DNA from: a virus
Taxonomy: Duplodnaviria; Caudoviricetes
DNA: 64,000 bases
Direction: 5' to 3' (one strand)
IMG/VR virus record: IMGVR_UViG_3300046514_000337
Span: 1,423 to 65,422 of that record
Shown here: in pieces, positions 1,795-60,911 of the stretch
How positions within the stretch are numbered: the first letter of the stretch is position 1
How the letters are laid out: the number at the start of each line of letters is the position of its first letter
Made by a program: the position numbers and the translations under genes
The notes under the pieces: generated by a model
What the model was told of the DNA's origin: nothing
Database searches by the model: none
The model's input: the letters and a program-made list of their open reading frames with translations, nothing else

Positions 1795-1836
1795 GGCTAC
1801 TCTTCCTTCCTGGCCGACCACGGAGAGTGGCGCAAA

Positions 1837-2145: not shown

Positions 2146-2156
2146 GGCGCTCCATT

Positions 2157-2348
2157 TTAGCCGTTTGGCCACCAGAACATCAGCCCATACACAAACAGCA
2201 GGACGCCAGGACAGGCGATAAGCCAACTACCGACGATATAGCTAATGTGCATATCGCTGTATTTCGTGCCTTTAAGAAGGACTACGAGGCCGGCAAAGAA
2301 CAGGAACGGGCCTCCCAGCATCGAAGCCACAAATGGTCCGTTGCCCAT
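2157..2348 (-). CDS. small two-TM membrane protein
   Basis: Two hydrophobic segments; lower GC than the flanks. Confidence 0.5.
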   Translation of the reverse strand: MGNGPFVASMLGGPFLFFAGLVVLLKGTKYSDMHISYIVGSWLIACPGVLLFVYGLMFWWPNG

Positions 2349-43134: not shown

Positions 43135-43899
43135 TTAGCGATCATAATAACTGGCCAAGCCGGGGGCAATGTAGATGGACACAACCTCCCTTTCCGCGAT
43201 CCGCGCTCGCTGGTAGCTTGCAGCGGCCTTTGCTGTCAGCGCGGCGGACATTTCCGGCGCATAGGTGTAGGAAAGCTCGACCGCCAGCGCGTCTACGTAG
43301 GCCATCAACCAACGAGCGGGTATCGCTACCTGTGTGCCACCTGCCAGCGTTGCATCCTGCGACTTTTTAAACCGCCAGTAGAAAAGAACGTATGGTCCAT
43401 TCCGGTCCGGCACGGGATAGAGATGGATGACAGGCGATATGAGCCGGTCAAACCAATAAGTTGTGGTAGGAGCCTGCAAGAACGGGTTCGGGTATGACGC
43501 AAACTCGCTACGCCCAACCGGAAAGATCACCCGATTGTTTGCGAACTGCGTGCTGCCGTTCGCCATCAGCGCGCCGCTCTCGTCCACCAGCGGAACGCCT
43601 ACATTGTCCGTCAGAAAGCCGGATGCCTGGGTCTGCACATAGGCATCGGCAACCATGATCGTATCCGGCGGGCACTGCACAATCTGCTGCCCCTGAGCCA
43701 GCGGGGCCGTTTGCAGGTCCACATCCCACAGCAGGGGCTGGTCAGTACTCCAATCGCTAAGTATCAGGTTTGCCGCCATATAGGCGTCGGCCAGATGCTC
43801 CTGAAGGACGGCAGTGCGGCGCACCTTCACGCGGCCAAGCGCGTAAACCGCGAGGCCGCCGAGCGCCGGATTGAAGGTGGTGGTGCCGGTGGTAGTGAT
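43135..43899 (-). CDS. head-tail connector-like protein (probable ATC start)
   Basis: The frame extends 23 codons upstream of the tracked GTG to an ATC behind GGAGG; ANLILSDWS...LW, YWFDRLISP..LYPVPD. Confidence 0.7.
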   Translation of the reverse strand: MTTTGTTTFNPALGGLAVYALGRVKVRRTAVLQEHLADAYMAANLILSDWSTDQPLLWDVDLQTAPLAQGQQIVQCPPDTIMVADAYVQTQASGFLTDNVGVPLVDESGALMANGSTQFANNRVIFPVGRSEFASYPNPFLQAPTTTYWFDRLISPVIHLYPVPDRNGPYVLFYWRFKKSQDATLAGGTQVAIPARWLMAYVDALAVELSYTYAPEMSAALTAKAAASYQRARIAEREVVSIYIAPGLASYYDR

Positions 43900-43954: not shown

Positions 43955-44293
43955 TCAGCGGGACGACATCCCCTGGATCGTGCGGAACGTGATGCTGCCG
44001 CCCGACGGGCCGGTGGTGACGTTGATCCGCAGGAACTGGATCGGCTCGGTGATGAGGCCGTTGGCGTTGCCTGTGGCCGCCGTCACCACGTCGGTCCATA
44101 CCGGAGCCGCCACCGTATTCACGTCATCGAAGGTCTGCTGCACGCTGAAGGTGCCCGTAACCGCCGTGCCCAAATTCTCAACGCTCCAGGAAAGCCCGAA
44201 CGGAGTCTGCATCCAATCGCAGTTGTAGGGCGCCTGGGCCCCTGCCGGCGAGCCGGTCCCCACGTTCGCCACGGTTTGCACGCGGAGAGCCAT
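43955..44293 (-). CDS. small beta-rich structural protein
   Basis: FSVQQTFDD...PIQFLRINVT; synteny. Confidence 0.65.
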   Translation of the reverse strand: MALRVQTVANVGTGSPAGAQAPYNCDWMQTPFGLSWSVENLGTAVTGTFSVQQTFDDVNTVAAPVWTDVVTAATGNANGLITEPIQFLRINVTTGPSGGSITFRTIQGMSSR

Positions 44294-45063
44294 CAGGAGC
44301 CTCGCCCGATGTCAGGATACTTCGCATGAACCTTCGCGCGCACGGTCGCCTTCTGCGCCGGAGAGCCGTGCTGCGATACCCGCGCGAGGGCGTTTCTGGC
44401 GTGAGAGGCATCTGGGATCGGATACGAGCCAGACCCAGCCCCCTTCGGTCCCGCGCCCTTGCCTGGCAGCGCGAAATCGCTCTTGGGGAGATGCTGACGC
44501 TCGGAGGCAGTCAGACGCCCCCCGCCAGCCAGCTTGATCGGCTTGTGCTCGCCGCCGTGCTCCGCCGTCTCATGCTGGCGGATCGCGCTACGGATCATCG
44601 AGGCATCGGCTGCCCGGTCGTCGTGTGTTTCACGTGAAACACTCCCGCCGCGCGCCCGGTTATGCACCGCCGGCAGCGCGCCAGGCTCGTCGATCGTCGG
44701 ACGCGCGGGCTGGTCATGCGCAGCGGCGTTGAACCGCTCCTTGATCGAGCCGCCAGCCGCGCGTTGCCGATAGCGATCAATGTTGTGCTGGGCAGCATCG
44801 CCTATGCGGTGCGAGTCCTCGATCAGTCCAGAAACAGCACCGAGCGAATCGCTCGGGCCGACATTTGACGCAGTTGGACCTGGATATGGCTCGCCGCTTG
44901 GCCACGCCTTGCCGCGCGAGTAGATGTCGTCATTGGCCGAACCGCCCGTCGCCCGCTTCTTCGCCGGAGCACGATCCAGCCGCCGCTTTGCGCCCTGGCC
45001 CTCTACCGAGCCGCCAAAGGCACGCCGCAACCGCTTCGCGTAGAGCTTCTCATGCGGCTGCAT
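44293..45063 (-). CDS. basic AxGG-repeat protein with C-terminal DUF6582-like domain
   Basis: ER..LPKSDFALP...YPIPDASHARNALARVSQ. Confidence 0.65.
   Translation of the reverse strand: MQPHEKLYAKRLRRAFGGSVEGQGAKRRLDRAPAKKRATGGSANDDIYSRGKAWPSGEPYPGPTASNVGPSDSLGAVSGLIEDSHRIGDAAQHNIDRYRQRAAGGSIKERFNAAAHDQPARPTIDEPGALPAVHNRARGGSVSRETHDDRAADASMIRSAIRQHETAEHGGEHKPIKLAGGGRLTASERQHLPKSDFALPGKGAGPKGAGSGSYPIPDASHARNALARVSQHGSPAQKATVRAKVHAKYPDIGRGS
44626..44641. promoter_or_regulatory. parS site TGTTTCACGTGAAACA
   Basis: Perfect 16-bp palindrome matching the bacterial parS consensus; lies within a CDS (encodes VSRET). Confidence 0.85.
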
Positions 45064-45236
45064 CTAGGCTCTCGCTCGTCGCGTCACATTGGAGCTGCAC
45101 GCACGCCTCCAATGAGGCTGGGTGCCTAACTATGGCGGCGCTGTCTGGCAACAGGATATAACTGCCATCGTCCGACAGTTCCCCGCGCTCATCTTCCCAG
45201 TGTAGTCGCCGCTCGATAACCACCACGCCACCGACC

Positions 45237-45680
45237 TCAGTCGTCCCGCTTGTCGGTCGAGGTCTGCAGCGAAGCCCCCGACGGCGCCGTCAGCCGGGCA
45301 GCCGACGTCATGGGCGACGTGTCCGCACCAATCCCGCCGCCACGCTTGCGCCCTGGCACGCGGTCCATCCTGTGATGCCGCGGGGCCTTTCCATCAACGT
45401 GCATCGGCATCGAGCCATGATGCACACCGCCGCCGCGCTTCAGTGCGATCGGGCCGCCTTGCTGCAGCACAATCGGGCCGCCTTGGGCGCGCTTGTGATG
45501 CTTCGCCCGGCCGCCGTGCTTGTGGCCGCCGTACCCGCCGGCCATGGCGTCCTTCTCGGTCTTCGACCCGACCGCGTTGTACTTCTGCGATCCGCGGCCT
45601 TCCTTCTCGTCCTCGGCCAGCTCCTCCATGCGCGACTCCTCAGCACCGCCGCCAGAAGCCCTCTTGTGGTGTGCCATCAA
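45237..45680 (-). CDS. basic His/Gly-rich AxGG-repeat protein
   Basis: Strong SD; six xxGG motifs. Confidence 0.7.
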   Translation of the reverse strand: MMAHHKRASGGGAEESRMEELAEDEKEGRGSQKYNAVGSKTEKDAMAGGYGGHKHGGRAKHHKRAQGGPIVLQQGGPIALKRGGGVHHGSMPMHVDGKAPRHHRMDRVPGRKRGGGIGADTSPMTSAARLTAPSGASLQTSTDKRDD

Positions 45681-45692
45681 CTGGCCTCCTTA

Positions 45693-46964
45693 TTAAAACT
45701 GCGCGTTGCCCATGAGCGAGGTCGCGCTCACGGCATTCGCCAAGATCATCTCCGACAGCGAGTTCCGCACGCCCATCGAAAGAATGACGCCCGTGAATGC
45801 CGTGCCTGAGTGGGATCCGTTCGAGGCGGTCGAGCCGATGCCTCCGCCGAGGCCGCCGATCGCCGATGTCTGGATCGTGCCGCGCACATCAGCCGTCGTG
45901 GCCGTGCTCGCCGTGCCGGAGGCCAGACCTGCAGTGAAGCCCGTGGCAGCCACGTTCATGCCAGCGTTCCACCAAACCTCGGTGTTCTCGATCTGCGCCG
46001 CCCTCGTCGCGAAGCCGAATACATCCGATGTGCCCACCGCATAGGTGTAAGTAGCATCAGTGAAGGCCGGTGTCACTGACGCAATGTACTTGAACGCCTT
46101 GATGCCATAGGTCGTGACCGATGTGCCCGGCACGCTCGTGATCGTCTCCGTCATGGCCTGGCCGTAGACGTCGTAGCCCTTGACGGTAAGCGCGCCGCCA
46201 GCGCCCAGCGCGTTGTTGCAGGTGATGACCACGCCCCGCGCAATCGCCTGCCGCGGATCGAGGAACAGCCCGGGCCCCGAGGCAAAGTAAGGAGCCGCCG
46301 CCGTAGGCACGCCTGCCGAGCCGCCTTCGATCGGCTGCCAGATATTGCCCGTGCCAACCCGTGCGCCGCCTGTCGCCGCCGAAAACGGCGCCGTGCTCGT
46401 CATCACCGCTACCGTCGCCGAGGTGATGCTCTGCACCGTCGTCATCCACGGCGTGGTGGTCGTCGCGATGGCCGCAAACACCAGCGGCATGCCGGGCACC
46501 AGCACCGACGTATCCGCAAATGTCACGTTGGCCGAGCCACTCACCAGCGTGGCCAGCCCAAACCCGAAGTCGAGGCACAGCGCCGGCGTGACGATCGTCT
46601 GACCGCCGTATCCGTTGCCCGTTGCCGATATCGGCGAAATCGGGATGTTCGCCACCGCGCCGAAGGACGGCACCGCCAGCGTCATCGCTACGCCGCTCGC
46701 CACCGTATGCGCAGCCGCAATATTTGTGGTGAGGTGCGCCGCTGGCGTTCCAACCGCCGAGCGGTAAAGCGCGGCATTGAACAGCGCCGGAGCAATGCCC
46801 TTAAAGCCCCCCGCGCGTTCCTTGTCGAAGATAAACCGCGGATCGGGCACGCCGTAGCCGTGGTAGAACATCGACGGGCCGAGACCCTGCTCGCCGCCCG
46901 CGACGCCGCCCGCAGAGAGCGAGCCGTAGGCAACGAACGGGCCTTGACCACCTGTCATTGCCAT
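45693..46964 (-). CDS. putative capsid-associated structural protein
   Basis: 423-aa beta-rich ORF directly after the major capsid gene. Confidence 0.7.
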   Translation of the reverse strand: MAMTGGQGPFVAYGSLSAGGVAGGEQGLGPSMFYHGYGVPDPRFIFDKERAGGFKGIAPALFNAALYRSAVGTPAAHLTTNIAAAHTVASGVAMTLAVPSFGAVANIPISPISATGNGYGGQTIVTPALCLDFGFGLATLVSGSANVTFADTSVLVPGMPLVFAAIATTTTPWMTTVQSITSATVAVMTSTAPFSAATGGARVGTGNIWQPIEGGSAGVPTAAAPYFASGPGLFLDPRQAIARGVVITCNNALGAGGALTVKGYDVYGQAMTETITSVPGTSVTTYGIKAFKYIASVTPAFTDATYTYAVGTSDVFGFATRAAQIENTEVWWNAGMNVAATGFTAGLASGTASTATTADVRGTIQTSAIGGLGGGIGSTASNGSHSGTAFTGVILSMGVRNSLSEMILANAVSATSLMGNAQF

Positions 46965-47013
46965 TTCAGGCGCTCCTTAGTTGGCAGGTCATGCTATTTC
47001 TTCCCCACCACGG

Positions 47014-47928
47014 TCAAGATGTGGGGAACGTGCCCCAAATACCTCTTGGGTTTTTATACCCAGCAAAGTACCTTTCGTAGCCTTTCACTAATAGGTTATC
47101 AGTCGAGTCATCCACCCACATGGACATCTCGAACTCCTGCCGCTGCAGGTAGAGCAGCCCGTCGTAGTTCGTCTGCACGAACCAGGCGAAGTTCGACGTG
47201 AAGAAGTCCATGACCTCGTAGCCGTCGGGGAGCGAGCCGGTGGCGCGCATGGCGTTGGCATCGTTGTCCGCGGTGCCGGGGCGCAGCGTCGTGTGCCACA
47301 GGCGCGCGGCGACCCACTCGTTGTAGGGATGCACGAGCAGCCGGCGCCCCCGCCAGAAGCCCTTCAGGCCCGCTTGATCGCGGAACAGCGTGCGGATCGA
47401 GGTGAGTGCGGTGAGGAGCGCCGCTTCGTTCAGGTCGAGTTGCGCGCTCGACGGCGTGTTCGCCCAGGTGCCATAGTCGTAGGGATGCGACGCGGAGCAC
47501 ATGGCCACGCCGTCCCCCTGGACCGCACCATTATAGACATTGGCGGTGTTCAGGACGTTGGCAGCCTGGATTTCCTTGTACTGCGCGAAGCTCTCGTGCA
47601 AGCCAAGGTTGGAGGCCGGGAACTCCGCTTCATACAGGTTGTCGTCGATCGCCTTGCGGGTGATGGCGTAGCCCAGCCCCACCTCGAAGTGCTCGTGGTT
47701 ATAGATGAAGCGCTCGCCGGCGTTGTTGTCCATGTAGGTCGCGGCGCCCTCGGTCTTGAGAGCAGCGAGACCCATGTAGCGGTTCTCGGCGGTGCGCTCG
47801 ATGCCGAGGTTCGACTTGCCTTGCCAGAAGATTTTGCTCCACTGAGTCGGGATCTGCTCGTATTTGCCTTCGATGCCGCGGAGGCCGGGGCGGGTGAGGT
47901 CGTAGATGGAGGCGACTGAAATGGCCAT
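47014..47928 (-). CDS. major capsid protein (HK97 fold)
   Basis: MAI.....L.RPGL; K.EG....D; GLGYAIT.KAIDDNLY; GDGV...SASHP; KGYERY; strongest codon bias. Confidence 0.88.
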   Translation of the reverse strand: MAISVASIYDLTRPGLRGIEGKYEQIPTQWSKIFWQGKSNLGIERTAENRYMGLAALKTEGAATYMDNNAGERFIYNHEHFEVGLGYAITRKAIDDNLYEAEFPASNLGLHESFAQYKEIQAANVLNTANVYNGAVQGDGVAMCSASHPYDYGTWANTPSSAQLDLNEAALLTALTSIRTLFRDQAGLKGFWRGRRLLVHPYNEWVAARLWHTTLRPGTADNDANAMRATGSLPDGYEVMDFFTSNFAWFVQTNYDGLLYLQRQEFEMSMWVDDSTDNLLVKGYERYFAGYKNPRGIWGTFPTS

Positions 47929-47940
47929 TGCTTCGCCTCC

Positions 47941-48585
47941 TTATGCGACTGCTGTGACGGTGCGGGTTTCGGCGAAGTTGAACATCACCACCACCCAGTT
48001 GTAGGCGGTCGTGTCGTCCACACCCGGAGAGCCCACCTCGAGGAAGTCACTGGCAAGGCCAACGATGCGGAAGGGCAGCGTCGTGCCCGCCGAAGCGACC
48101 GCCGTGAAAAGATCGATGTAGCAGGACGACTGCCCGGTCGTGGTGTTGCCGACGTTCGAGGCGCCCGTGTAGTTGATGTCCACGGTATTGCCGACGTTGG
48201 CGATCGTGGCTGGGCTGACGGTGCCGCTCGAGGCCCCGGTCTGCGCGAGAAACCGCGCGTTGGGGTTCGTGAAGATATTGGCCGGGAACGGGTTGGCGAG
48301 GGCGTCGCTCGTGCCCGGCCAGAACTTCGACATCACCGGGATTTTCCCGGCGATGGAGTAGTATTCGCAGTCCCAGAAGACGCCGGCCGCCTGGGCGCTT
48401 GAGCCCGCCGCCATCTGGCGGATGTAGCCGGCCTCCGTGGAGGTGCCCGTGACGACCGGATCGCCGCGAAAGATCGCGGTCGTGTCGGTCTTCAGGATTT
48501 TCCGGGGATTGAAGCTGAAGTTCGTGACCGTGCCGTCGCCAGACCAGAGCGGCATCAGGCCGAATGGAAGATTGGTGTTTGCCAC
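47941..48585 (-). CDS. capsid decoration/cement protein
   Basis: ANTNLPFGL.P, TAIFRGDPV, TLPFRIVG; immediately upstream of the major capsid gene. Confidence 0.7.
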   Translation of the reverse strand: MANTNLPFGLMPLWSGDGTVTNFSFNPRKILKTDTTAIFRGDPVVTGTSTEAGYIRQMAAGSSAQAAGVFWDCEYYSIAGKIPVMSKFWPGTSDALANPFPANIFTNPNARFLAQTGASSGTVSPATIANVGNTVDINYTGASNVGNTTTGQSSCYIDLFTAVASAGTTLPFRIVGLASDFLEVGSPGVDDTTAYNWVVVMFNFAETRTVTAVA

Positions 48586-48599
48586 GGGCAACAGCCTCC

Positions 48600-48725
48600 A
48601 TCGCTCGGAAGCTGGTGGCGGGCTCCGCCTGGGCTACCGATGATGAGGCTTGGTTCCCGGCATGGGAACGGTCGCGGCCGACGCGGCGGCCAGACCCCTC
48701 GAATGCCTCCAGCGCGGAGGCGGCG
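48600..48725 (-). other. structured leader with three tandem GC hairpins
   Basis: Stems at 48653-48669, 48676-48691 and 48705-48721. Confidence 0.6.
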
Positions 48726-48845
48726 GGACGTTAGGCGCAAGCGGTGAGACAGGTCAAGCTAATTGTTCTAGAGAAAGCGGGGAGGCAGTGGTTCCCGCCG
48801 CTGGCCTCCCCTAAGCCTGCACCCTTATGCAGAAGGATGCAGCTA

Positions 48846-49201
48846 TGAGCGTCGTAGAAATACGCGAAACCACCGTAACACAGGATTTATCTGGCGCAAT
48901 CGTTCAGCTTCGGATTTCCGACGCAAAGCTGCCAGACGACCCTGCCGAAATTCGTCTAACCATTCAGGCGGCAGTTCCGGCATTCGAACTGCCTTTGCTC
49001 GCACAGGTTCAGGGGGATGCGCTAAAGGCAGCATCATCTGTACCACGTGTTGCCGAGGCTTGCGCCCGTCATTTTCCCTCCGTTACTCTCAGCGCACGTC
49101 AAGAGGATTGTTGCTGCGGGCCGGAGTATACACCGGCTATGGCGGTGTTCCTCCGCCTCGGCATGCCGGCGATCAACCCGGCTTTCGGCAATGTAGTCTA
49201 G
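48846..49201 (+). CDS. antisense hypothetical ORF (moron-like, possibly degraded)
   Basis: Protein-like N-terminal half with lower GC; C-terminal half looks off-frame. Confidence 0.4.
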
Positions 49202-49257
49202 CCTTTCCGCGCGTGTCCTCTCCACGCCGCCGCAGCGTCTACGCTATACCACGAAAC

Positions 49258-49836
49258 TTACTCAATAGCCATCCCATCGCTGATCGGCATCCGCGTCACG
49301 CGCACGCTCGGCGCGATGCCCGGATGGTTCCGTGGCCCGGTGCCAGACGGTGCCGTCGCCAGCATGGCGTTCGCGTTCTGCTTCGCCAGCTTCGACTTCA
49401 GGTATGCGCCACGATGGCGGTTGTATGCCTCGTTCTCCGGCAGTTCGTAGAGCCGCTGACCCTCAAGTTCGATCGCGCCCTGATGGCCAGGCGGCATGAA
49501 CAACCCATCATGCCGTGAGGCCGGCACGGGCCGCCAGCCATTGCGCTCGGCCCGCTGCGCACGGCGGTTCGTGTCCGGCATGCCGTAGACTTCGGTGCGA
49601 AACCACTGGTACACCATGCCGGCGGGGATGATTTCCTCCGGCACCTCGAACTGCAGCGTCTCGTCCTCAAAGCCGCGCGCGATGATCTCCTCGTCCGTCA
49701 GGCGGCGCGATTGCAGACCATGCGGCTGCAGCGGCTCGCTGAGCGGCTTCTGCGCCGCCGTCAGCTCAGCATCCATAACGCTGGCGTCGAGACGGAGCGG
49801 CTTCTTAGCCGAGGGAGCATCAGCCGAGGTGCTCAT
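49258..49836 (-). CDS. head-module hypothetical protein
   Basis: IP.GMVYQW.R..V.G...GWRPVPASRH. Confidence 0.7.
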   Translation of the reverse strand: MSTSADAPSAKKPLRLDASVMDAELTAAQKPLSEPLQPHGLQSRRLTDEEIIARGFEDETLQFEVPEEIIPAGMVYQWFRTEVYGMPDTNRRAQRAERNGWRPVPASRHDGLFMPPGHQGAIELEGQRLYELPENEAYNRHRGAYLKSKLAKQNANAMLATAPSGTGPRNHPGIAPSVRVTRMPISDGMAIE

Positions 49837-50804
49837 CGTGCGTTCCTCCACGGATTGCCTCTCTTGAAGCCCTCGCTCCCAGTGGCCTGCTCCATGCGCA
49901 ACGCCTCAGCCCAGGACTGTGATACGAGCTGCATGTCGGGCACCTGCCGCCCATTCTCCTTCTTCGTAAAGCCCCATACCTTCATGGCGTGATCCACGAA
50001 CTCCTTGGGAATGTGATCTCCTCTCGGGCGCGTTTGGCTGTGGAGAGAAGCCGTCTGCCGTCCGGGCGCGGCCTGCGGAATCTGGCGCTGGCCACCGTTG
50101 GGAGGTGCCGGCTGCTCTGGATTGGTCAACCCTGCTGTCCTTTCGACGAACTGGAAATACTCCGGACTGTTTTGAGTGAGACCGCTCCCCATCGCGAGAG
50201 AATGAGCGCCGACAACACGAGCCTGGAACGCCGGATCGGTGTAGAACAGCGGACGGCCATCGGAGCCTACGTGGCTTCGTATCCAAGTCGCCGCCCGGGC
50301 ATCGCGCGTTGCCAGATCGGCTTCAATCGGATCGGCACCATCCTGCGGCTGTTGTTGCCTAGGCTGTTGCGCTGGCTCGCGAAGCTGCTGATTGCGCCGC
50401 GCCTCCATCTCCCGCTTGCCGGCCTCGAGTTGCGTAATCCGCGCTCCCACCTGCCCGGCCTGCACCGACAGATCCGCCACCTTCTCGAAATCGCCGGCTT
50501 CACCGGCAGCCTTCATCTGCCCCCGGATCAGATCGGCCTGGCGCAACTCGGCATCAAGCGCATTGCTGACTGAGGCGAAGTCCGATGTCTCCCGCTCCTG
50601 CGTGACGGTCTGCAACTGCTCGGTGACGTTGGCGACCTGCGCTTGCGCCGACCGGAGGCTCGCCTGATAGCGCCGTTCACGCTCGACGCGATCCGTCTCG
50701 AACTGCGCCTTGATCGCATCGATGGACGTAGCGGGGTCGGCGGGATCTGGCTTGTCGTCGATCGGTTCTTGTTCGGGCGGGGCGGCTTCTGCTGTTTCGC
50801 TCAT
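49833..50804 (-). CDS. scaffolding-like protein
   Basis: Acidic coiled coil; A.EAGDFEK; upstream of the capsid genes. Confidence 0.7.
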   Translation of the reverse strand: MSETAEAAPPEQEPIDDKPDPADPATSIDAIKAQFETDRVERERRYQASLRSAQAQVANVTEQLQTVTQERETSDFASVSNALDAELRQADLIRGQMKAAGEAGDFEKVADLSVQAGQVGARITQLEAGKREMEARRNQQLREPAQQPRQQQPQDGADPIEADLATRDARAATWIRSHVGSDGRPLFYTDPAFQARVVGAHSLAMGSGLTQNSPEYFQFVERTAGLTNPEQPAPPNGGQRQIPQAAPGRQTASLHSQTRPRGDHIPKEFVDHAMKVWGFTKKENGRQVPDMQLVSQSWAEALRMEQATGSEGFKRGNPWRNAR

Positions 50805-51367
50805 CAGAACACCACATCCGGCCGCGACACTGGCATTTTGATCGCCCGCTCATTCACGAAGTGCAGGCAGTTCACGCCGTTGATCGAAAGCCTGAACCCG
50901 TTGGCATCACCGCGGCGGAAGATCACCCAGTCATTCACCTCGAACTTGTCGGCGTCGGTCCACGTCAGTTGGGGCGTCTCCTCGAAACACCGCGCCCCCA
51001 TCTTCAGCACCAGCCCAACATGGCCCTGGTAGATGTCCTCATCGAGAACCCGATCAGGCCGCTGGATGCTTTCCCACGGGAACTTGTCGGGCCGCTTGTA
51101 CACCGCCACCAGAACCGCGTTCAGCGTCACCCGCACCGTATTCAGCGCCCACCCGACTTGATCGCGAATACGCTGCTTTTCGGACTCAAAGAACGCCATC
51201 GCCTCCGCCGTGTTGGGGCCGACCTCGACGCCAGGAACACGCTGCGGCGGGGCATCCTCGGCTTCTGCAGCAGCCATCGCGGCCGCACGCTGTTCCTCCG
51301 CCCGCCGCGCGTTCCGCTCCTGCATCCGCGCCTCACCGATATGCCTCGGCAACACCAAACTAGACAC
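50804..51367 (-). CDS. GroES-like co-chaperonin
   Basis: VLV...VGLVLKMG..CF...EVNDWVIF...INGV....NE..I. Confidence 0.7.
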   Translation of the reverse strand: MSSLVLPRHIGEARMQERNARRAEEQRAAAMAAAEAEDAPPQRVPGVEVGPNTAEAMAFFESEKQRIRDQVGWALNTVRVTLNAVLVAVYKRPDKFPWESIQRPDRVLDEDIYQGHVGLVLKMGARCFEETPQLTWTDADKFEVNDWVIFRRGDANGFRLSINGVNCLHFVNERAIKMPVSRPDVVF

Positions 51368-51668
51368 CGTACAGCGGCTCCTTCTTTTCTACGGCCTCGG
51401 GCTCGCCGCTCGCCTCGCGCTCAGCCTCCCTGATGGCCTTCAATGCGTTCGAGTACCCGCGCAGTTCCCCTACCGCCTCGCGATAGGCTTCCAGCGTTGG
51501 GAGCGTGCCTTCCGTCAGCGCGCCGCGCACCCGCTCGGAATGCTCCTGCAATAGGCGCGTCAACCGGCCAATGACCGTCTGCTCGGCGTAGGTCAGCGAC
51601 GGCTTCGGCTGCGGGATAACCCCCTGTTTGAGAGGCGCCCAGGCGTCGGGGTTGAGATCGATCCTCAT
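51360..51668 (-). CDS. hypothetical head-module protein
   Basis: YR..VG.LRG...AL..I helical motif. Confidence 0.65.
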   Translation of the reverse strand: MRIDLNPDAWAPLKQGVIPQPKPSLTYAEQTVIGRLTRLLQEHSERVRGALTEGTLPTLEAYREAVGELRGYSNALKAIREAEREASGEPEAVEKKEPLYGV

Positions 51669-51684
51669 TGTTTCACGTGAAACA
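51669..51684. promoter_or_regulatory. parS site TGTTTCACGTGAAACA
   Basis: Second perfect copy; intergenic, abutting the ATG at 51668. Confidence 0.85.
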
Positions 51685-51695
51685 TTTGGCAGACC

Positions 51696-52250
51696 CTAGT
51701 CAATCCGCATCTCTTTCTTTTGGGCAATCGACTTCTCGATCCGCCCCAACCCGCCGCCCGAGCCGGCATCCATCTTCGGCGGCTTCACCGCGCCGCCGCC
51801 CTTCATTCCAGGCGGGCGCATACCGGGCGGCGGTGGCATCCCGCCAGGGGGCGAACCCATCGGACGCGGCGGCATAGCGCCCGGGGGCATTCCACCCGGC
51901 GGTCCACCGGGCGGACCCCCCGGAGGCCCACCCATCTGCGGCATCGGAGGCCGCGCCGGAACCGGAACCGGCACCGCCTGCGGAGCGGACTGCTGCGCCG
52001 GTGGCACCAGCACGTTCACGCTCACATGCGCCTTCCCCTTGTGGCGATCGGCGCGCTTCTTGCTCGCACCACCCTCCACCGCCCCACCGTCAGCGTAGCC
52101 GGCACGATGATCCGGCTTCGAGTGATGCTTGCCGTGCGTCCCAGTGCGGGCATGGGGCACAGAACCCCCGCGACTTACCCCTGCCCGTTCCGCAATCCGC
52201 CCACCGCGAGCCTCGGCGCACGCCGAACGCATGCTGCGATAGTCAGTCAT
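51696..52250 (-). CDS. Pro/Gly-rich AxGG-repeat protein
   Basis: ARGGRI, SRGGSV, ADGGAV, KGGGAV; ends AGSGGGLGRIEK. Confidence 0.7.
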   Translation of the reverse strand: MTDYRSMRSACAEARGGRIAERAGVSRGGSVPHARTGTHGKHHSKPDHRAGYADGGAVEGGASKKRADRHKGKAHVSVNVLVPPAQQSAPQAVPVPVPARPPMPQMGGPPGGPPGGPPGGMPPGAMPPRPMGSPPGGMPPPPGMRPPGMKGGGAVKPPKMDAGSGGGLGRIEKSIAQKKEMRID

Positions 52251-53085
52251 GTGATGTCCTTCCATCAAAGACGGCAGTTCCGTCCTTATCAAGATATAGC
52301 GGTGGAACCGAGGGCCGGACCGGCGGGACAAGCTCTATTGGCCCTCCGTGCAGCTTCATCAACGCATCCATCGCCGCAATGAGGTAATCCGTTGGATCAC
52401 GCAACCCAACCCGCAACGGTTTCCCATCCTCCCCGATACGGCAACGCATCCCATTCTTTAGTGCCTGCGCCACTTGGCTGGCAGCCTCGAATGCAATGGA
52501 TGCCTCAGCCATCACGCACTCCCCTGCAGGTTGTCGAGAATTGCAGCCTGTTCGGCCCAGTTCGTCACAGCCTCGAACGCCTCATCGCACATGCAATGAA
52601 CCTCCAAAAACACGTCCGCCCCGGTTACAGACCGCAACACCGGGAATTTGCGAACGATGCCCTCGATTAAGTCCAACAGCGTCAGCCCGCGGTCATAGAG
52701 CGCGGCAATTTCCTCGGGAACCTCAGCACCGCAGGCGACTGCCATATCGAGAACAGCACGAGAGCATTCCCGCTGTTCCGCTCCCGCAGCAAGCAACGCC
52801 TGCAAGCGCTCTTCGTGCGACCGCTCAACCATCGGACACCCATAGGCGCTTCCACTGCCGCGCCCGACCCTTCACCCTGTCGCCCCCGTAATCCATGAAA
52901 GCAACCAGCGTGTCGCCCAGCACCCGCCAGCGGTACGGGCCCTGGTCGTAAACAACCTCGCCATTCGTGCCCGCCCATCGCGCGGCTTTCGCCGGAATGG
53001 GCGGGACATCAGCCCGGGAAATGAAGACACAGCCCTCTGGCATCATGTCCCGGTGCCCGAGATCAATGATTAGCGTTACGCTCAC
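52243..53085 (-). CDS. three small coupled hypothetical ORFs (52243-52515, 52512-52832, 52825-53085)
   Basis: Overlapping stops and starts. Confidence 0.55.
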
Positions 53086-53789
53086 GCGCCCGCCGGCACC
53101 GCCGCCGTTGTCTCGAAACTCCCAGAGACACCCGACACGCCAGGATTGGCACGATCACGAACCGCCAGCACATGCGATCCAGCCGCCGGCGCCGCTGCCT
53201 TGAACGACCACTTCTCCGCTTCGATAGTGGCACCCTCCGCCGGGACCCACCCGCTGCCGTCGAACTCGTAATCCAGCGCAGCCGGTGCTGCACCAGCATA
53301 CGTGCCGGTGTAGGTCGTCTCAGTCCCCGCCACTGCAGCAGCCGGCAGATCAACCACGATGGCCTCCTTACCCACGACCGGCGCCGTACCCGCAAAAAGT
53401 GCGTGGACATCCGTCGCCAGCACCGCGATCGTACAGTTACCGCGCGCCGCAACGCCAGCCTTCGCTGCCAGTTCGAGATCCAGAAGATCAGCCGCCGTCG
53501 GCTCCGTCGCCCGCCAAACCGTCCATTCGAGGTTGCCCTCAACGTAGAACTCCACGAGGAACCCAACCTTCTGCCGACCGCTCCTGACGACGATCGTAGG
53601 CAGAACCACCGGAAGAGCCTCCCGCGCCTTCTCCGCCGCCGCAGCGCGCTCCTCCGCCGCCGCCTGCTTCTCCTTGGCCGCGGCATCGGCCTTGGCCTTC
53701 ACCGCATTCGGATCGCTGCCAACCGCCGCCGACGGCGTAGGGATGGGCGGCCAGATCGTAGCGGTCGGCGTAGTGAGGGTCGTTGACAT
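53082..53789 (-). CDS. protein with C-terminal Ig-like domain
   Basis: TGTYAGAAPAALDYEFDG...WSF...AGSHVLAVRD; strong SD. Confidence 0.7.
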   Translation of the reverse strand: MSTTLTTPTATIWPPIPTPSAAVGSDPNAVKAKADAAAKEKQAAAEERAAAAEKAREALPVVLPTIVVRSGRQKVGFLVEFYVEGNLEWTVWRATEPTAADLLDLELAAKAGVAARGNCTIAVLATDVHALFAGTAPVVGKEAIVVDLPAAAVAGTETTYTGTYAGAAPAALDYEFDGSGWVPAEGATIEAEKWSFKAAAPAAGSHVLAVRDRANPGVSGVSGSFETTAAVPAGA

Positions 53790-53851
53790 GCTATTTAGCC
53801 TCCTGATGCCGGGGAACTACCCGGAGTTGTAGGGGAAGATAGCGGGTTGCC

Positions 53852-54106
53852 TCAAGCTCGTGCATCCCAAAACCAATAACGACGGTTGCCATCGCGGGCA
53901 TACATCAGATTCGAGAGCCAATCGCCCTCAAACCATGTTTGAACGCCATCAGCGCGTCGCTTAATGTCCAATTCCTTCCGGGGATGAAGCTCCGCCAGAA
54001 GATCGCGGCCGTTCACATGGCTGAAACTGGCATGTACAAGCGCATCAAAGCGCTTTTGCTTCTCGTCCGCCGACAGAGCCAGTAATTCAGCTTTGGTAGC
54101 CATCAT
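53852..54106 (-). CDS. hypothetical protein
   Basis: MMATKAELL..., coupled to the portal stop. Confidence 0.5.
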   Translation of the reverse strand: MMATKAELLALSADEKQKRFDALVHASFSHVNGRDLLAELHPRKELDIKRRADGVQTWFEGDWLSNLMYARDGNRRYWFWDARA

Positions 54107-56526
54107 TATGGCCCTCCCCCCGGTTGAGGTCGCGTTGCCAGTCCAGCCGCAGCAACAGCGTGGTCGTCCGCGTGCGCAACCATCTCGTGCTGTAGCCTCA
54201 ATCTCTCCGTCTGCTCGCGCGTCATATCGATCTCGGTCTTCGCCGCACGATCCGCCGCACGGTCCTGGCTCTCGACCATCGCCTCGTGCGCCCGCAACTG
54301 CTGATCGGCCCCAACCGCCGACCCTTCCGCCGCCGTCTTCTGCGTCTGCGCCCCCAGCAGCGGCACCTTCGCATCGGCCTCCTTCGCCCGCGCCTGCGCC
54401 GTCGCAATCGACGCCTGCGCCTGCATCATCTTCGCCTGCGTCGCCTGCGGATCCGGTGGCTTCGCGCCGGCCCCACCAGCCGCCGCTGCCTGCTGCGCCT
54501 GGAACGCCTCGAACTCCTCCTGCGTGTTCAGAAGCGAGTCCGTGCTCGTGACACCCATGCCGCGCAGAACCCACTCCGCCGTAGGCACCACCTTGAACAC
54601 CCCCGGCGGTGTCTGCAGCGCCATCTGGAACACCGCCATCCGCTGCATCACCCGATGCAACATCGACGGCGTATTCGGATCAGCCGCCGGCACCAGATCG
54701 TAATCGTCCAGCGCCGCCAGCAGCGTAGCCTCATCCCACTGACGCGCCGGCTTCTTATTGTGACGCCAAAACGCCTCCGGGTCCTCACGCAACCGCTCGG
54801 CAATCAGCCCAAACTCCTCCGCCTGCGCCGCATGCAGCCGCTTAAACACCGCACCCGTCAGCTTCGTCGCCTCGATGATGTTCGCCATCACCGTCCCGAC
54901 CGGAGCGTTCTGCACACCCTCGCCCGTCGGTACATTCGGCCGCGACCCCACCCGAGCCGCCGCCTGCGCCACATTGTCCAGCAGCGACAACCCCGCAGGC
55001 TGCGGCCCCTTGTACGGCAGCGGCGAGATCATGTTCCCGATGGGCTGCCCACCAGTCTGAATCGGAACACCGGCCCCAGGCGCAACCCGGAAGATGTTCG
55101 TCAGTTGCTTCCCCAGCACATCCACATACAAAAAGCCCGGGAAGTTGGAAAACATCATCGAATCGAGCATCAGCCGCCATCCGGCCGTCAGTGCCATCGT
55201 CGTATTGCCGAGGATGTGCATCAGCCCGATGCCGTAAAAACTAAGGACCGGCGCAAACGAATACTTCACAAACGTCCGCCGAGCCGCAAAGTCCTTGTCG
55301 CCAGGCATCCAGTCGCGCCGAATCTCGAACACCTGTCGACTGTCCCGGTCCATCGATACCTTGTACGGGCGCGGCACCCGGATTTCGCCGTCGTCCGTAA
55401 ACCCGCCACCGTTCCCCGGCGCCCCATCATCCAACCCACGGATATTCAGTTTCGTATAGCACTCCCAGACCGTGTGCGGCTTGTCTTCAGGACGCTGCGC
55501 GCTGCGATCATACCCCTGCGCCTCAGCCACAGCCTCCTGCACAGGATTCTGCACATACAGGGGCTGGCTAATCCGCCCCTCCGCGTATACCCCCGCTTCC
55601 ATCAGCTTCAGGATATCGTCCTTCAGCTTCTCCATTTCGTGCGTTACTCGCGGCGCATTCGCCGTGTCAGTCACACCAGCATCGACAATCAGATCCTTGG
55701 AACTGATGCTCTCGCTCACCGGACGACGCCGCAGTGGGCAGTTGAACACCTTCTTAAACGCACATCCCAGCAACCCAACCACGAACGCCATCTGGTCAGT
55801 ATCTGGGTAATACTCCGTCGCCGTATTCGTCAGAAAGTGGTTCAGGTCCTTCTCGAGATCCGCCGCCAGCTCATCGCCCATATCCAGGGCTGGGCCGCCG
55901 TTGTGCCCCATCCCGGCTTCGTTCGCCGCCATAACAGCCTGAACCGCCGTATCCACGTTCTCCGGCGCGATCACACCAGCCGTCGCCATCGCCTGCACAG
56001 CGAACCGAACAACCTCCTCCGGCACCCCACTCGGAGCCGTGGCGTCGTTCCGCACCTTTACCGGACCATCCGCCGGCAGCATCTCACCCCTGAAATCCGA
56101 CTGAAACCCAAGACACGCCTCGAGCAGCAGCGGATGCCGAACCGTGCTCATCCCCTCCAGAGGCGCACCACTCCCACCCGCATCGCTCCGCGGCGGCTCC
56201 AACCGCAGCCCAAGCATCCGAATGGCCTCGGCCGTCATCTCCATCACCCCGCGCCGGCTGGCGATGTCCGCCGTCACCCCGCGCCAGACCTCATCCCCGA
56301 TCCGCGCCACCTCGTTCTGGTCCAGCACGTCCACCAGGTTCGCGAAGTGCTTCCCGTTCCCCGCACGCTTCGCCGGTCGCCACTCTTCCTCGGGCAGTTC
56401 GTCGATCGAGTTGTCGTCGTTGAGGATCAGCAGGCCGCCGGTATCGGGGTTGACCGTCCCCTCGCGCCCGTCCGGGGCGGTACCGTACTCGGTGTCCTCA
56501 CGGGGGCGGAGGTTTACGACGACCAT
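54106..56526 (-). CDS. portal protein (P22-like podoviral)
   Basis: HFANL, STVRHPLL.EA...FQ, G.AFKKV, FYGIGL.HILG, APVGT; Q/A-rich C-terminal barrel. Confidence 0.9.
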   Translation of the reverse strand: MVVVNLRPREDTEYGTAPDGREGTVNPDTGGLLILNDDNSIDELPEEEWRPAKRAGNGKHFANLVDVLDQNEVARIGDEVWRGVTADIASRRGVMEMTAEAIRMLGLRLEPPRSDAGGSGAPLEGMSTVRHPLLLEACLGFQSDFRGEMLPADGPVKVRNDATAPSGVPEEVVRFAVQAMATAGVIAPENVDTAVQAVMAANEAGMGHNGGPALDMGDELAADLEKDLNHFLTNTATEYYPDTDQMAFVVGLLGCAFKKVFNCPLRRRPVSESISSKDLIVDAGVTDTANAPRVTHEMEKLKDDILKLMEAGVYAEGRISQPLYVQNPVQEAVAEAQGYDRSAQRPEDKPHTVWECYTKLNIRGLDDGAPGNGGGFTDDGEIRVPRPYKVSMDRDSRQVFEIRRDWMPGDKDFAARRTFVKYSFAPVLSFYGIGLMHILGNTTMALTAGWRLMLDSMMFSNFPGFLYVDVLGKQLTNIFRVAPGAGVPIQTGGQPIGNMISPLPYKGPQPAGLSLLDNVAQAAARVGSRPNVPTGEGVQNAPVGTVMANIIEATKLTGAVFKRLHAAQAEEFGLIAERLREDPEAFWRHNKKPARQWDEATLLAALDDYDLVPAADPNTPSMLHRVMQRMAVFQMALQTPPGVFKVVPTAEWVLRGMGVTSTDSLLNTQEEFEAFQAQQAAAAGGAGAKPPDPQATQAKMMQAQASIATAQARAKEADAKVPLLGAQTQKTAAEGSAVGADQQLRAHEAMVESQDRAADRAAKTEIDMTREQTERLRLQHEMVAHADDHAVAAAGLATRPQPGGGP

Positions 56527-58102
56527 CAGGCCGCCACCTCATACATCGTGTCCGTTACCGTCACCAGATGCCCAACGGCGGGTTTCCACTTAACAAAACC
56601 GCAGTCCAAAGCGTGGCGGAAGCCAGCCTCAGTCGCAACGAGTTCTATGCGGCCATCCGCAGCGTCGCGCGCCTCACACAACCCGGCGTCAATCAACTCC
56701 ATAACAGACGATAAACTACCCGCGTCAACCTTCCACCGGCCTAGCACCACGGCCTCCTGCAGTATCGCCACATGGTGACGACGAAGGGGTTCGACGCCGA
56801 TCATAAACCCGCCAGTTACCACACCACAGCCGAGATGTCACCCAATCCGTTCAGACGCTCACCACGCCTCACGCTCCAGTAGATCCTCGTGCCACCAGTT
56901 CTCCAACCATGGGTCCAAAATAAAACCGGCAGCCGCCACTTCTTCCGCCGTCACCCAGCCGTCAAGGATCGCCTCCCGGAAAATAACCGGGCGGTTCAGA
57001 AGATAAGCACGCAGAAACTTCCGACGGACAGATCGCTCAGCGTCAGTCGCATCGGGGGGAAGGCACAGTTGAATACCCACCGACCGCGCCAATTCTGCGG
57101 CCAGATGCGATTCTTGCCAGACGCCCATCACTCAATCTCCAACTCCGCCGCGTGCAGCCGCCCCAGCCGCCGCCCCACCCCCGCCACATTCGGCGACGGA
57201 AGCCACTCGTCCGTCCGCAGCGGGCCAGCACGAACCATGTCCCCCGTGATCCGCCCGTAGATCCCACGCCCCGCCTCGATCATCGCATCCTGCTGCGCCA
57301 TCCGCCCCTCAGCCGCCCACTTCTGTCGCACGTAGGCCGCCTCCGTCTCCCGCGCTACCTCCGCCATCCGCTCACGCCACGCCGCCAAATCCTCCCGATA
57401 CTGGCGAGCAAACATACGGGCGCGAGCGGGGTTCATGCCAAAGCAGGCTTCAGAGCATCAATCGCCGCCCGCGCGGCCGCGTCCTCCACGCCCGCCTCCC
57501 AACGCGTGTAGATCAACCCATACTTCCCGCAATTGCCGCACCCATTCACGCAGGCAATGCTCGTCCCCTCGTGAACCTCACTCTCCCACCCGCATTGGCG
57601 ACACGAGAAAACAGTGCGGTTTTCGCGCCCAGTGCGCATCACCCCAACCCCTCCATCAACTTCCCAACACACTCAGGCACCGGATACACATCCCCCAAGT
57701 CAAACAACTCCGCCACCAGCCGATCCCGCTCCGCCAAATCCACACCTCCCACCATCTCGCCCCTCCTCACACGCCGCACCAACTCATACGACCAGCCCCC
57801 AGCAACGGGCAGCGCACGTACATGATCCACAATCCACAACTCCCCACCAATCTTCGTCACATACCGATGCCGCCGAAATACCAACTCCCCACCCGCCGGA
57901 GGCAACCACGCCAAGGGTAGAGCGTGCTTCACGCTTCATCCCATGGCAACTCGCCCATCGGGATAGGATCAATCTCGCAATCCCCATACGTTACCCGAGG
58001 CCGACAGCGACCACTCCACTCGCTCTCGCCAACCAGACGAGCCGGCTCACTCACCCGCGTTACATCCTCCCACACTCGTTCACCCGGGGTCATGCCGCCT
58101 AG
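56526..58102 (-). CDS. cluster of small hypothetical ORFs between TerL and portal (56526-56822, 56859-57131, 57128-57436, 57433-57672, 57639-57932)
   Basis: Mostly coupled; 57433-57672 has two CxxC pairs. Confidence 0.55.
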
Positions 58103-59742
58103 GTCCTGTATAGGGGTTGAAGCCGCCCAGCCCGATCATCTGCCATCGCCCCCAACCGATCCGCCTCCACAGCCTCAACCTCCCGCATCAGCATCCCGTT
58201 GTCCCGCATCCATCGAAGCGCGCTCGTTACAGCATCGCACCTATCATCATGCCGCCCACGCGGAAACAAACTAATCTCACGGATCGTATCCTCACACCAC
58301 TCAGGCCACGCCAGTTCGTCCGTCCCCGCACGCAACACCCGAGGCGCATACACCATCCCATCCTCAAACAACGGCACAACACTCATCACCCGCGACACCT
58401 TATCGTACCCTCGCCGCCCCGCCACACTCCCACGCGGATCAGTCATCGTTATCGAATACGGCTTGCCTTGAAACACCCGACCCAGTTCCTGCACCACACT
58501 ATATCCCGTCGCCTTGTTCTCAACCAGCAACGTATTCACCTTATACCGCCGAGCCGTCTCATCTATCCGCTGAACCGCATCATTCAACGCCATCCGATCA
58601 GCCCAACACCGAATCAACATCACCTTCGGCATTCCATGACGCTGCTCGGTGAACGTCCCCAAAACCGCCATCGCCGTCGGATCGTTCACCGTGCGCTCAG
58701 TGAACGCCCCGTCAACCCACGCCACCACAAAATCAAACCGGGGAAATTTCGGCGCGCTCACATCAACAGGGTCCCACGGCTGCCACCAGTCATCCCGAAT
58801 GATCGCCCCACCACGCGGCACCGGCAACTGCTGAAACTGAGACGCTACCGCATATTGCCCCATCGCACGCTTGTCGCGCTCGACAACCCACGCCGGGAAA
58901 CGCTCAGGGAAACACAACTCCCCTCGCACCTCCCACCATTGCCGGTCGTTCCGACCAGGCTCCAAGTCCTCAACCGTCCGCGGCTCTCTCCAACCTATCG
59001 ACGTCTCGCACCGCCGCTCGTCCAACTCCATCGGGATCATCAGGTGCGTGTAGTCCCCACCATCACTCAACAGCGTCCCCGTCGCATCATCCTCATGCGT
59101 CCGCTGCTCAATCGCCACAATCGCACTCGCCTGCGGATCGTTCATACGTGTCGGCAGCGTCTCCCGAATGTACCGCTGCGCCACCCCGCGAACCACAGGA
59201 CTGTCCGCCTGCTTCACCGAAATCAAGTCATCCAACAGCACCCGATCGCCGCGCTCCCCCGTCCCCACCCCATCCACCGACGTCGCCAGCTTCCACCCCG
59301 TCTTGTCATTCGCCAGCTTGCCTACCCCCGTCTGCGTCACCTCAAACCGATCGCCCCAATACTTCGTAAACATCGGCGACCGTAGCAACTGAAGCGCCCT
59401 CCCATTGTCGCGCTCTGTCAGCGATGACGTATACGACACACACACATACCGCATCGACGGATGCCGCACCCACTCCCAGCACGGCCAGAATACCTGCGTC
59501 GTCAAACTCTTCGACATCCCAGGAGGGCAGTTGATAATCAGCCGCGCTATCTCCCCTGTCGTCACCGCCTCAAGATGTTCGCAAATCGCCCCGATCGCCC
59601 AACCGTTTACGAACGGACGCGATGGCTCTACCGCACTCCAGCAAAAACGTATGAAATCAATCAGCCGCTCCTCAGCCTGCGCCGCACGCAGAAACTCAAT
59701 GTCCGCAGCCGTCAGCCCGCCTAGGTCAAGCGGGGCCGCCAC
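58099..59742 (-). CDS. terL: terminase large subunit
   Basis: INCPPGMSKS (Walker A), GERGDRVLLDD (Walker B), QRTHEDD, FPRGRHDDRCDA nuclease motif; GTG start with SD. Confidence 0.95.
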   Translation of the reverse strand: MAAPLDLGGLTAADIEFLRAAQAEERLIDFIRFCWSAVEPSRPFVNGWAIGAICEHLEAVTTGEIARLIINCPPGMSKSLTTQVFWPCWEWVRHPSMRYVCVSYTSSLTERDNGRALQLLRSPMFTKYWGDRFEVTQTGVGKLANDKTGWKLATSVDGVGTGERGDRVLLDDLISVKQADSPVVRGVAQRYIRETLPTRMNDPQASAIVAIEQRTHEDDATGTLLSDGGDYTHLMIPMELDERRCETSIGWREPRTVEDLEPGRNDRQWWEVRGELCFPERFPAWVVERDKRAMGQYAVASQFQQLPVPRGGAIIRDDWWQPWDPVDVSAPKFPRFDFVVAWVDGAFTERTVNDPTAMAVLGTFTEQRHGMPKVMLIRCWADRMALNDAVQRIDETARRYKVNTLLVENKATGYSVVQELGRVFQGKPYSITMTDPRGSVAGRRGYDKVSRVMSVVPLFEDGMVYAPRVLRAGTDELAWPEWCEDTIREISLFPRGRHDDRCDAVTSALRWMRDNGMLMREVEAVEADRLGAMADDRAGRLQPLYRT

Positions 59743-60911
59743 GCCGCCGATCCTCCGCCGCCTGCAACTCACGCAGGAACGCAACCTCCGCAACCGTCAA
59801 ACCACCGCGCCACTTGCGCCGCCCCGGAGGCACCAGCCGCCCCCGCTCCATCCGCCCCGCCTGCCGCAGCATCGACGACGCCATCCGCAAGTTCCCCGCC
59901 ACATCACCCACGCCGCCGAGCCGCGCCACGCGATGCGCCAGCGTCTCCGCCTCCATCGCCAGACGCTCGATCTCTGCCTGGCGGAGGGGGTCAAGTAACA
60001 TCGCCCAGCTCCGTCAGCCCGTCGAGCGTCTCCCGGTGCCGCCGCTCCCGCACCTCCGCCTCCGCCCACGTCTCACGCAGTCGCCGCACACACACGTCGT
60101 GCATCGCCACCGCATCCCGGTTCGCATTCGCAAACCGCGGACCGCTCACCGATGTCAGCGCCGCCAGCGCCTTGAAGTGCGCCATCGCCGCGCGCAACTG
60201 CTCCTCCGAGATCGGCGCGTGCGTCACCAGCGCGTTTGCAGTCTGGATCGTCATTCGCACTTCGTCAGTCATTCCACATCCTCCGCCGCATCCTCCCGCG
60301 CTAACCTCTCCGCCTCCGCAAATGCCCCACGAACAGGCCAACGAGCCAGCATCCGCACCATAGGATTCGCATGGTCAAGCAGCGGGTGGCCATACGGCGG
60401 CGGCGCAACCCACCCCAGCCGCACCCAATCAGCCAGCACCGTTTCAGGATCGTCGGGTTGCCAGGGTACGTATGGCGCGTATGGCGCATCAGTCATCCCA
60501 CATCCTCCGCCGCTGCCCCAAGCCAGAACGCATACCGCGCCACCGCCGCCGCGCGCGCCGCATCCATCGCATCGGTGTCACAAAGAGGAACATCGTACAG
60601 AGAACGTGACTCACAAAAGGTCATCGGCCGTGCGCGCCCCTTCAAGTAGACGAACTCTCCGGTTCGTATATCAACGCCAGCGGTAACGAATGGGTACTCT
60701 ACCATGCCATATCCCGGTGCCGATTAATCTCCGCATTCAGCCGGGCGTACAGAACGCGGTTGGTTTGCACGAGTTCGCAATGTGGCGGATTGCAGTCCAG
60801 CGTGATGCGAACATACTCGCGCCAACGCTCGAGCGCCGACAGCACGAGGTCATCTTCATGGGGTTCGGGCAGCCCTACCACGTCTGACACATCCACTGTC
60901 CCGCCATCCAA
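59726..60911 (-). CDS. small coupled hypothetical ORFs (59726-60001, 59991-60272, 60269-60496, 60493-60705, 60699-~60890)
   Basis: ATGA overlaps. Confidence 0.55.
60265..60513. repeat. 25-bp direct repeat TCAGTCATYCCACATCCTCCGCCGC (60265-60289, 60489-60513)
   Basis: Read directly, one mismatch; encodes the AAEDV(E/G)-stop / MTD junction. Confidence 0.9.

Follow-up and report, generated by a model that had tools for sequence, protein, structure and literature searches.

Two perfect chromosomal-type parS sites bracket the head genes of an uncultured phage without its own ParB and probably load ParB of the host

In most bacteria, chromosomes are segregated mainly by ParB and its site parS. The stretch of DNA analysed here (hereafter, the window) comprises 64,000 nucleotides, bases 1423–65422 of a 65,422-bp virus record in IMG/VR (IMGVR_UViG_3300046514_000337). 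The record, which derives from an uncultured phage with a genomic GC content of approximately 63%, is classed as linear in IMG/VR, and its completeness was estimated at 90% by CheckV. The sequence TGTTTCACGTGAAACA, a perfect 16-bp parS palindrome, occurred exactly twice in this record. Both sites are flanked by the genes for the portal protein and an SU10-type adaptor, and the major capsid protein (MCP) gene lies between them; thus, the sites bracket the head genes (Table 1). An earlier note on this DNA, prepared from the sequence alone, had described two perfect parS copies about 7 kb apart around the capsid genes, one within a coding sequence (CDS) and the other touching a start codon, in a phage lacking ParA and ParB. 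The scan confirmed the exact positions and both local settings, the homology of the gene between the sites bore out the capsid assignment, and the lack of ParA and ParB was found to hold for the whole record, in six-frame as well as Pfam searches, at the completeness given above.

Both sites matched the consensus TGTTNCACGTGAAACA at 16 of 16 positions, and when up to two mismatches were permitted, the window contained these two perfect sites and no others. In 100 dinucleotide-preserving shuffles of the window, the mean number of matches at ≤ 2 mismatches was 0.01, and two or more matches were obtained in none of the 100 shuffles. Since two perfect sites were present against 0.01 expected even at this tolerance, a chance origin is excluded. 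When the whole 65,422-bp record was scanned, the third-best 16-mer differed from parS at four positions, and nothing else was found within three mismatches. Furthermore, the two sites were the only perfect palindromes of at least 16 bp in the whole genome. ParB half sites were not enriched, as GTTTCAC occurred six times against 5.3 expected, with four of the six belonging to the two parS sites. Duplication or membership in a repeat family was ruled out, because the flanks of the two sites are unrelated and parS is the only repeated palindrome; capture of host DNA was also ruled out, because the genes flanking the sites have syntenic phage orthologues. The 16-mer corresponds exactly to the core of the parS duplex that was used with Caulobacter ParB in vitro, as given in the methods part of the source (PMC7053999).

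Table 1. Positions of the parS sites and of the genes discussed in the text (numbering of the window)
Feature	Position	Strand	Remarks
GcrA-family cell-cycle regulator homologue	1249–1821	-	Pfam GcrA, 52.9 bits
Sigma-70 region 4 / GcrA N-terminal type helix-turn-helix (HTH) protein	1837–2226	-	second GcrA match
SU10-type adaptor-like gene	43135–43830	-	downstream edge of head module
CDS holding site 1	44293–45063	-	256 aa, P0001; repeated RGG[SH]V motifs; C-terminal match to phrog_16160
parS site 1	44626–44641		perfect TGTTTCACGTGAAACA; flanking G and C extend the palindrome to 18 bp
Major capsid protein gene	47014–47928	-	304 aa; between both sites; homologues in named phages carry a capsid protein annotation
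CDS with ATG touching site 2	51360–51668	-	102 aa; ATG at 51666–51668; orthologues in 7 of 12 IMG/VR relatives
parS site 2	51669–51684		perfect TGTTTCACGTGAAACA; directly adjoins start codon
Lineage-specific spacer holding site 2	51669–51695	-	27 nt, 16 of them parS
CDS upstream of site 2	51696–52331	-	211 aa, proline/glycine-rich; ends 27 nt before the ATG of 51360–51668
Portal protein gene	54106–56526	-	phrog_1216, E 1.6e-12; SU10_portal weak; tblastn to head-to-tail connecting proteins
Terminase large subunit gene (terL)	58099–59793	-	phrog_38, E 9.2e-78

The local origin of the two sites was assessed by comparison with MCP-related loci, 12 from IMG/VR and nine from metagenomes, which showed 48%–88% amino acid identity and a syntenic head module (metagenome locus L138 may be the contig of IMG/VR locus L128, given the same length and match position). 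Site 1 occupies codons 141–146 of its CDS (AGT GTT TCA CGT GAA ACA, encoding S V S R E T), directly after a conserved RGGxV motif and within a stretch that is variable among the orthologues. Each of the six codons has A or T as its last base, the GC content at third codon positions (GC3) of the whole gene being 0.73, and the orthologous place in L120, L123 and L127 differs from parS by 7–10 mismatches. At site 2, the open reading frame (ORF) calls in L125 and L127 indicated that the genes corresponding to those flanking the site overlap by 4 nt (ATGA); the junction sequence in L120 and L122–L124 was the same as that in L125, and the upstream region differed in L126. Because the site-1 place is at least seven mismatches away from parS in syntenic relatives and a conserved ATGA overlap is found where the site-2 spacer sits, both sites are derived in this lineage and look newly made. 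They also came at a cost, site 1 departing from the codon bias of its gene and site 2 from the tight packing of genes. At neither site did the coding strand show a promoter-like or terminator-like feature, and the RNA hairpin of site 2 was ordinary (z = -0.37); a role of site 2 as an RNA structure or terminator is not supported on these grounds. In L126, the closest locus by MCP DNA identity, a two-mismatch parS (TACTTCACGTGAAACA) was observed at 7489–7504, within a lineage-specific ORF (7259–7651), followed by ATGGGGATGGAT, which resembles the bases after site 2 of the window (ATGAGGATCGAT). Three head-module proteins (encoded at 44293–45063, 45237–45680 and 51696–52331) contain repeated R-x-GG-[SH]-V motifs with variable linkers between them, and in the L123 orthologue of P0001, a tandem peptide repeat forms part of a large insertion. 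For the genes around the sites, PHROGs yielded nothing usable at E ≤ 1, and a profile search against PDB sequences yielded nothing significant.

No ParB or ParA was identified among the Pfam matches of the 94 ORFs, and no candidate for ParB_N, AAA_31 or CbiA was found at E ≤ 1 in the six frames of the whole record. Thus, the sites do not occupy an origin-proximal location next to parAB; they sit in the phage head module of a record without these three families. For most of the ORFs (76 of 94), Pfam yielded no match at E ≤ 0.01, and no DNA polymerase, primase, helicase, integrase or repressor was recognised by Pfam among the 94 ORFs, while RecT and N6/N4 methylase genes were recognised in addition to the features in Table 1. 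The MCP shared 64% identity with that of MW202675.1 and 33%–36% with its counterparts in Pelagibacter, Roseobacter and other phages. The portal relatives retrieved by tblastn infect Caulobacter, Roseobacter and Pelagibacter, which, together with the GcrA homologue, suggests an alphaproteobacterial host. The GcrA family matched Caulobacter and, oddly, Sulfolobus among 14 control genomes, and a search with the GcrA homologue of the phage gave no match in genomes and no tblastn match in named phages. The methylase was discarded as a host clue, as its relatives are spread broadly among phages and are not specifically CcrM-like. No tRNA was found in the phage and no prophage relative was found in the genomes searched.

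Outside this phage, the exact 16-mer was found in at least 119 IMG/VR stretches, compared with 2 and 21 stretches for two control palindromes of the same composition. Relatives of the phage by TerL, portal or MCP accounted for 31 of the 119 parS stretches listed but for none of the 23 control stretches (Fisher's exact test, one-sided p = 0.002). The parS-bearing lineages share the same 16 bases, with TerL and portal proteins that are 23%–37% identical and GC contents from 37% to 63%. ParB_N was detected in only four of the 118 parS-bearing IMG/VR records listed, and in two of the 31 with a completeness of at least 90%. One-mismatch variants in three sequences (G036, G023 and L223) read TGTTCCACGTGAAACA, which we take to be a natural parS of the Bacillus type. 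The matches of the scan also included small phi29-like records with inverted terminal repeats, four of five of which contained DNA_pol_B_2 when tested; these look like the known phi29 class and serve as a positive control. In several contigs (L067:43, L092:14, L072:240, L062:27, L099:132 and 11579), the contig ends within a few hundred bases of parS, and in L099, which is flagged as having inverted terminal repeats, both ends have a site nearby. This may reflect a location of parS near genome termini or a breaking of the assemblies at these points.

Two clades were examined by retrieval with TerL alone. The TerL of L035, whose nearest named phage is Pelagibacter phage HTVC027P (TerL identity of 62%), matched at least 600 stretches; the best 80 of these (L217–L296; 88%–100% amino acid identity) were examined, and 72 were assessable, the other eight having too short an upstream sequence. 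An exact parS was present within 400 bp upstream of terL in 58 of the 72, at a distance of 68–136 bp. A one-mismatch site occupied the same place in two others, three exact sites and one one-mismatch site were found approximately 1 kb upstream, and eight stretches had no site. Across 48 distinct sequences, the pairwise identity was 0.992 in parS versus 0.60 and 0.76 in the 20 nt adjoining it on the two sides. Directly after parS in L217–L296 come another conserved palindrome (TTGCCTA-N5-TAGGCAA) and a CTTGTT motif, all of them 68–136 bp upstream of the terL ATG, and a conserved AGGGGCCCC element precedes this ATG. HTVC027P, a cultured phage, carries a one-mismatch parS (CGTTTCACGTGAAACA; MN698241.1 16412–16427, L216) in the convergent intergenic region gp31/gp32, at a distance of approximately 630 bp from the gene annotated as the small terminase.

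The second clade is that of L060, a cousin of this phage (identities of 63% for MCP, 42% for portal and 37% for TerL). At least 600 stretches were matched by its TerL, of which the best 80 were examined; the counts refer to loci whose upstream sequence extended over at least 1.5 kb. Exact parS was found in 32 of 34 loci with a TerL identity of ≥ 80% (95 sites, one to five per locus, all upstream of terL), in two of 11 loci at 70%–79% and in none of 18 loci below 70%. The arrays in the cousin clade (L060:10535–11462; L021:2657–3444; L304–L369) consist of one to five perfect parS located 0.2–4.7 kb upstream of terL, with variable site number and spacing, and in L060 and L104, one site overlaps an in-frame ATG of terL (ATG+TTTCACGTGAAACA). 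The larger records of this clade, five in number and two of them rated 100% complete, had their one to five sites confined to the cluster upstream of terL; ParB_N was found in none of the five and GcrA in all five. In comparison, GcrA was found in none of five other parS-bearing related records. By these comparisons, the site, and not its flanks, is under purifying selection in the related clades, and at least two phage clades that are abundant in the environment conserve the trait.

Further features were observed elsewhere in the window. Two long ORFs on the minus strand (22169–28993 and 28997–32155; 2274 and 1052 aa) had no Pfam match at E ≤ 0.01 and presumably encode tail or ejection proteins. 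Three exact direct repeats of 24–29 bp were observed in the tail-side/early region (14603–14631/14815–14843, 19166–19191/19328–19353 and 20368–20391/22138–22161), with separations of 212 bp, 162 bp and 1770 bp, respectively. The GC skew was strongly negative, to -0.35, over the portal–terminase region (52000–60000) relative to the rest of the genome.

To our knowledge, phi29 in sporulating Bacillus, with a genome of approximately 19 kb, is the only well-known phage that borrows ParB/parS without encoding ParB. In a literature search with subscription journals and supplementary files outside its scope, no paper beyond those on phi29 and Nf was found that describes natural host-type parS on ParB-less phages. 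The exploitation of host Spo0J through parS by phi29, which the earlier note had cited as a precedent, is as stated there: phi29 is reported to use five parS sites with Spo0J, and the Bacillus phages phi29 and Nf resemble this phage in having no ParB of their own and several copies of host-type chromosomal parS (PMC2731898). The host segregation machinery is reportedly exploited by phi29 and Nf (PMC2731898), and such use is proposed here for this phage. There are also clear differences: phi29 is protein-primed and infects a spore former, and its reported payoff is entrapment in the spore (PMC2731898), whereas the phage studied here has a 65-kb podophage-type genome with GcrA, two sites in the head module and probably a non-sporulating alphaproteobacterial host. 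The native parS sites of Caulobacter crescentus cluster near ori, whereas the sites described here reside on a virus without a ParB or ParA gene. In the plasmid prophages P1 and N15, ParA and ParB are encoded by the element itself and have a site specificity of their own. These prophages resemble this phage in having centromere-like sites on the phage genome, which P1 and N15 use for partition, but differ in that their ParABS is self-encoded, whereas this record lacks a parA–parB operon and its sites equal the chromosomal consensus.

Taken together, the palindromes very probably load the chromosomal ParB of the host in some form. The same 16 bases are kept despite core protein identities of only 23%–37% and a wide GC range, the purifying selection is restricted to the site, and no ParB gene is present; therefore, host ParB is the probable single, conserved reader. 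The proposal in the earlier note that a ParB-less phage borrows host ParB through chromosomal-type parS thus gains indirect but strong support from the identity of the 16-mer with Caulobacter parS (PMC7053999, methods part), the derived and costly nature of the sites and their conservation in related ParB-less lineages. We infer an alphaproteobacterial host with canonical parS, binding of ParB in vivo and all downstream effects. On entry of the phage DNA, ParB dimers would nucleate on each site, bind cytidine triphosphate (CTP) and close into clamps, which would slide onto the flanking phage DNA. The unintegrated phage genome would then behave as an extra centromere and become a cargo of the host ParA/ParB machinery, with additional tethering to the pole in alphaproteobacteria. 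In this way, phage DNA could be positioned and given to daughter cells when lysis is delayed, during slow growth or in a carrier state, as in phi29 with Spo0J, and a draining of ParB from the chromosome would be a by-effect. Since phi29 provides the only experimental precedent, we lean slightly towards positioning or partition of unintegrated phage DNA as the payoff, a tentative preference that we hold at somewhat less than an even chance.

Several observations weigh against the loading of host ParB for this purpose. The earlier note had looked to conservation of the sites in related phages, which was not found among the nearest relatives: none of the 21 MCP-related loci had parS at ≤ 1 mismatch, and none had it at the place of either site. 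Among TerL relatives that were fetched independently of parS, none of 45 carried the site, and a general occurrence of parS in this TerL family was rejected accordingly. Likewise, nine of 10 named relatives, including Caulobacter phages RW and GB2A, had no site at ≤ 2 mismatches, HTVC027P being the exception. The orphan parS trait is sporadic and accessory. No relatives above 88% MCP identity were found in IMG/VR or metagenomes, no MCP match was found in 185,579 genomes, and megablast against phages returned nothing; the lineage is a singleton. The sites of the cousin clades lie upstream of terL, and this phage has none there, its 4.2 kb from terL to the end of the window being free of parS. 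A ParB gene or further sites could lie in the part missing from the 90% complete record. ParB accumulates on closed DNA (PMC7053999), and few clamps may be retained by the sites of a linear phage genome. Pfam recognised no integrase, repressor or replication initiator, and the carrier state is pure conjecture. Finally, GcrA is the only host clue, and the family also matched Sulfolobus.

The loading of ParB could also serve a different end. The sites might act as decoy centromeres, with ectopic ParB complexes, and later many phage copies, drawing ParB and, in alphaproteobacteria, MipZ and PopZ off the chromosomal centromere; division and segregation would then stall during phage replication, with the phage GcrA acting in the same takeover. 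This possibility, which we rate as unlikely though worth serious attention, draws on Caulobacter, whose chromosome has only the parS 1–7 cluster and in which a plasmid carrying parS sites 3 and 4 is reported to be lethal and a single ectopic mid-arm pair of strong sites to perturb division and segregation, with elongated cells and abnormal ParB and MipZ foci (PMC5815017). This phage likewise has exactly two strong sites, GcrA occurs with orphan parS here and in all five of the larger L060-clade records but in none of the five other parS-bearing related records, and the variation in site position by lineage (CDS, spacer or array) is as expected if only ParB loading matters. However, orphan parS is also kept by phi29-like records and by the clade near HTVC027P, and MipZ or PopZ is not expected in the hosts of these phages; a general payoff is thus more economical. 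The conserved position upstream of terL in two clades would be needless for pure titration, and the only experimental precedent, phi29, concerns segregation (PMC2731898). An effect on neighbouring genes is less probable still. As a roadblock or silencer, ParB at the sites could set the timing of the adjacent late genes, or it could mark a packaging landmark, and such a role would suit site 2, which touches a start codon, as well as the L035-clade site beside the second palindrome and a promoter-like sequence, 68–136 bp upstream of the terL ATG, the L060 and L104 site that overlaps an in-frame terL ATG and the one-mismatch site of HTVC027P, about 630 bp from the annotated terS. In contrast, site 1 lies in the middle of a CDS, no promoter-like or terminator-like feature accompanies the sites on the coding strand, the hairpin at site 2 is unremarkable, positions differ between this phage and its cousins, and arrays of three to five sites over approximately 1 kb resemble centromeres rather than operators.

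The remaining explanations dispense with ParB altogether. A phage HTH protein, such as the sigma-70 region 4/GcrA N-terminal type protein, or another host factor that shares the parS sequence might be the reader, and the phage indeed encodes at least two HTH-type proteins along with the many ORFs that had no Pfam match. Nevertheless, a phage-encoded reader would be expected to drift, whereas the 16 bases are the same at the TerL/portal identities and GC contents reported above; a conserved host ParB explains this identity, the TGTTCC variant and the occurrence of phi29-like genomes among the matches of the scan, which makes a different reader improbable. That the sites have no function, being neutral leftovers of recombination with host DNA or a product of chance, fits the lack of sites in the nearest relatives and the singleton status of the lineage. 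We nonetheless consider it highly improbable, as chance is excluded, the sites are flanked by phage structural genes that have phage orthologues and not by host DNA, two independent perfect sites arose against codon bias and gene overlap, and the same trait is under purifying selection in related clades.

Loading of host ParB at these sites would be a phi29-type trick in a quite different phage, and as its host is probably non-sporulating, entrapment in a spore cannot be the payoff. It is conceivable, if rather doubtful, that phages of hosts other than spore formers make wide use of orphan host centromere sites as a tool that has not been described so far, and that parS, as a 16-bp "effector" consisting of DNA only, and the phage GcrA form a two-part cell-cycle takeover kit in one group of GcrA-encoding podophages of approximately 60 kb. 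As an equally speculative outline of such a kit, the sites would load host ParB, tether the phage DNA and derail division that depends on ParB, MipZ and PopZ. The abundant uncultured clade near HTVC027P has its site next to the packaging genes. If true, a 16-bp sequence would rank among the cheapest host-takeover devices known and would offer a handle on the persistence or localisation of unintegrated phage genomes in slow-growing bacteria. It would also bear on the use of ParB/parS as a neutral DNA label in phage experiments.

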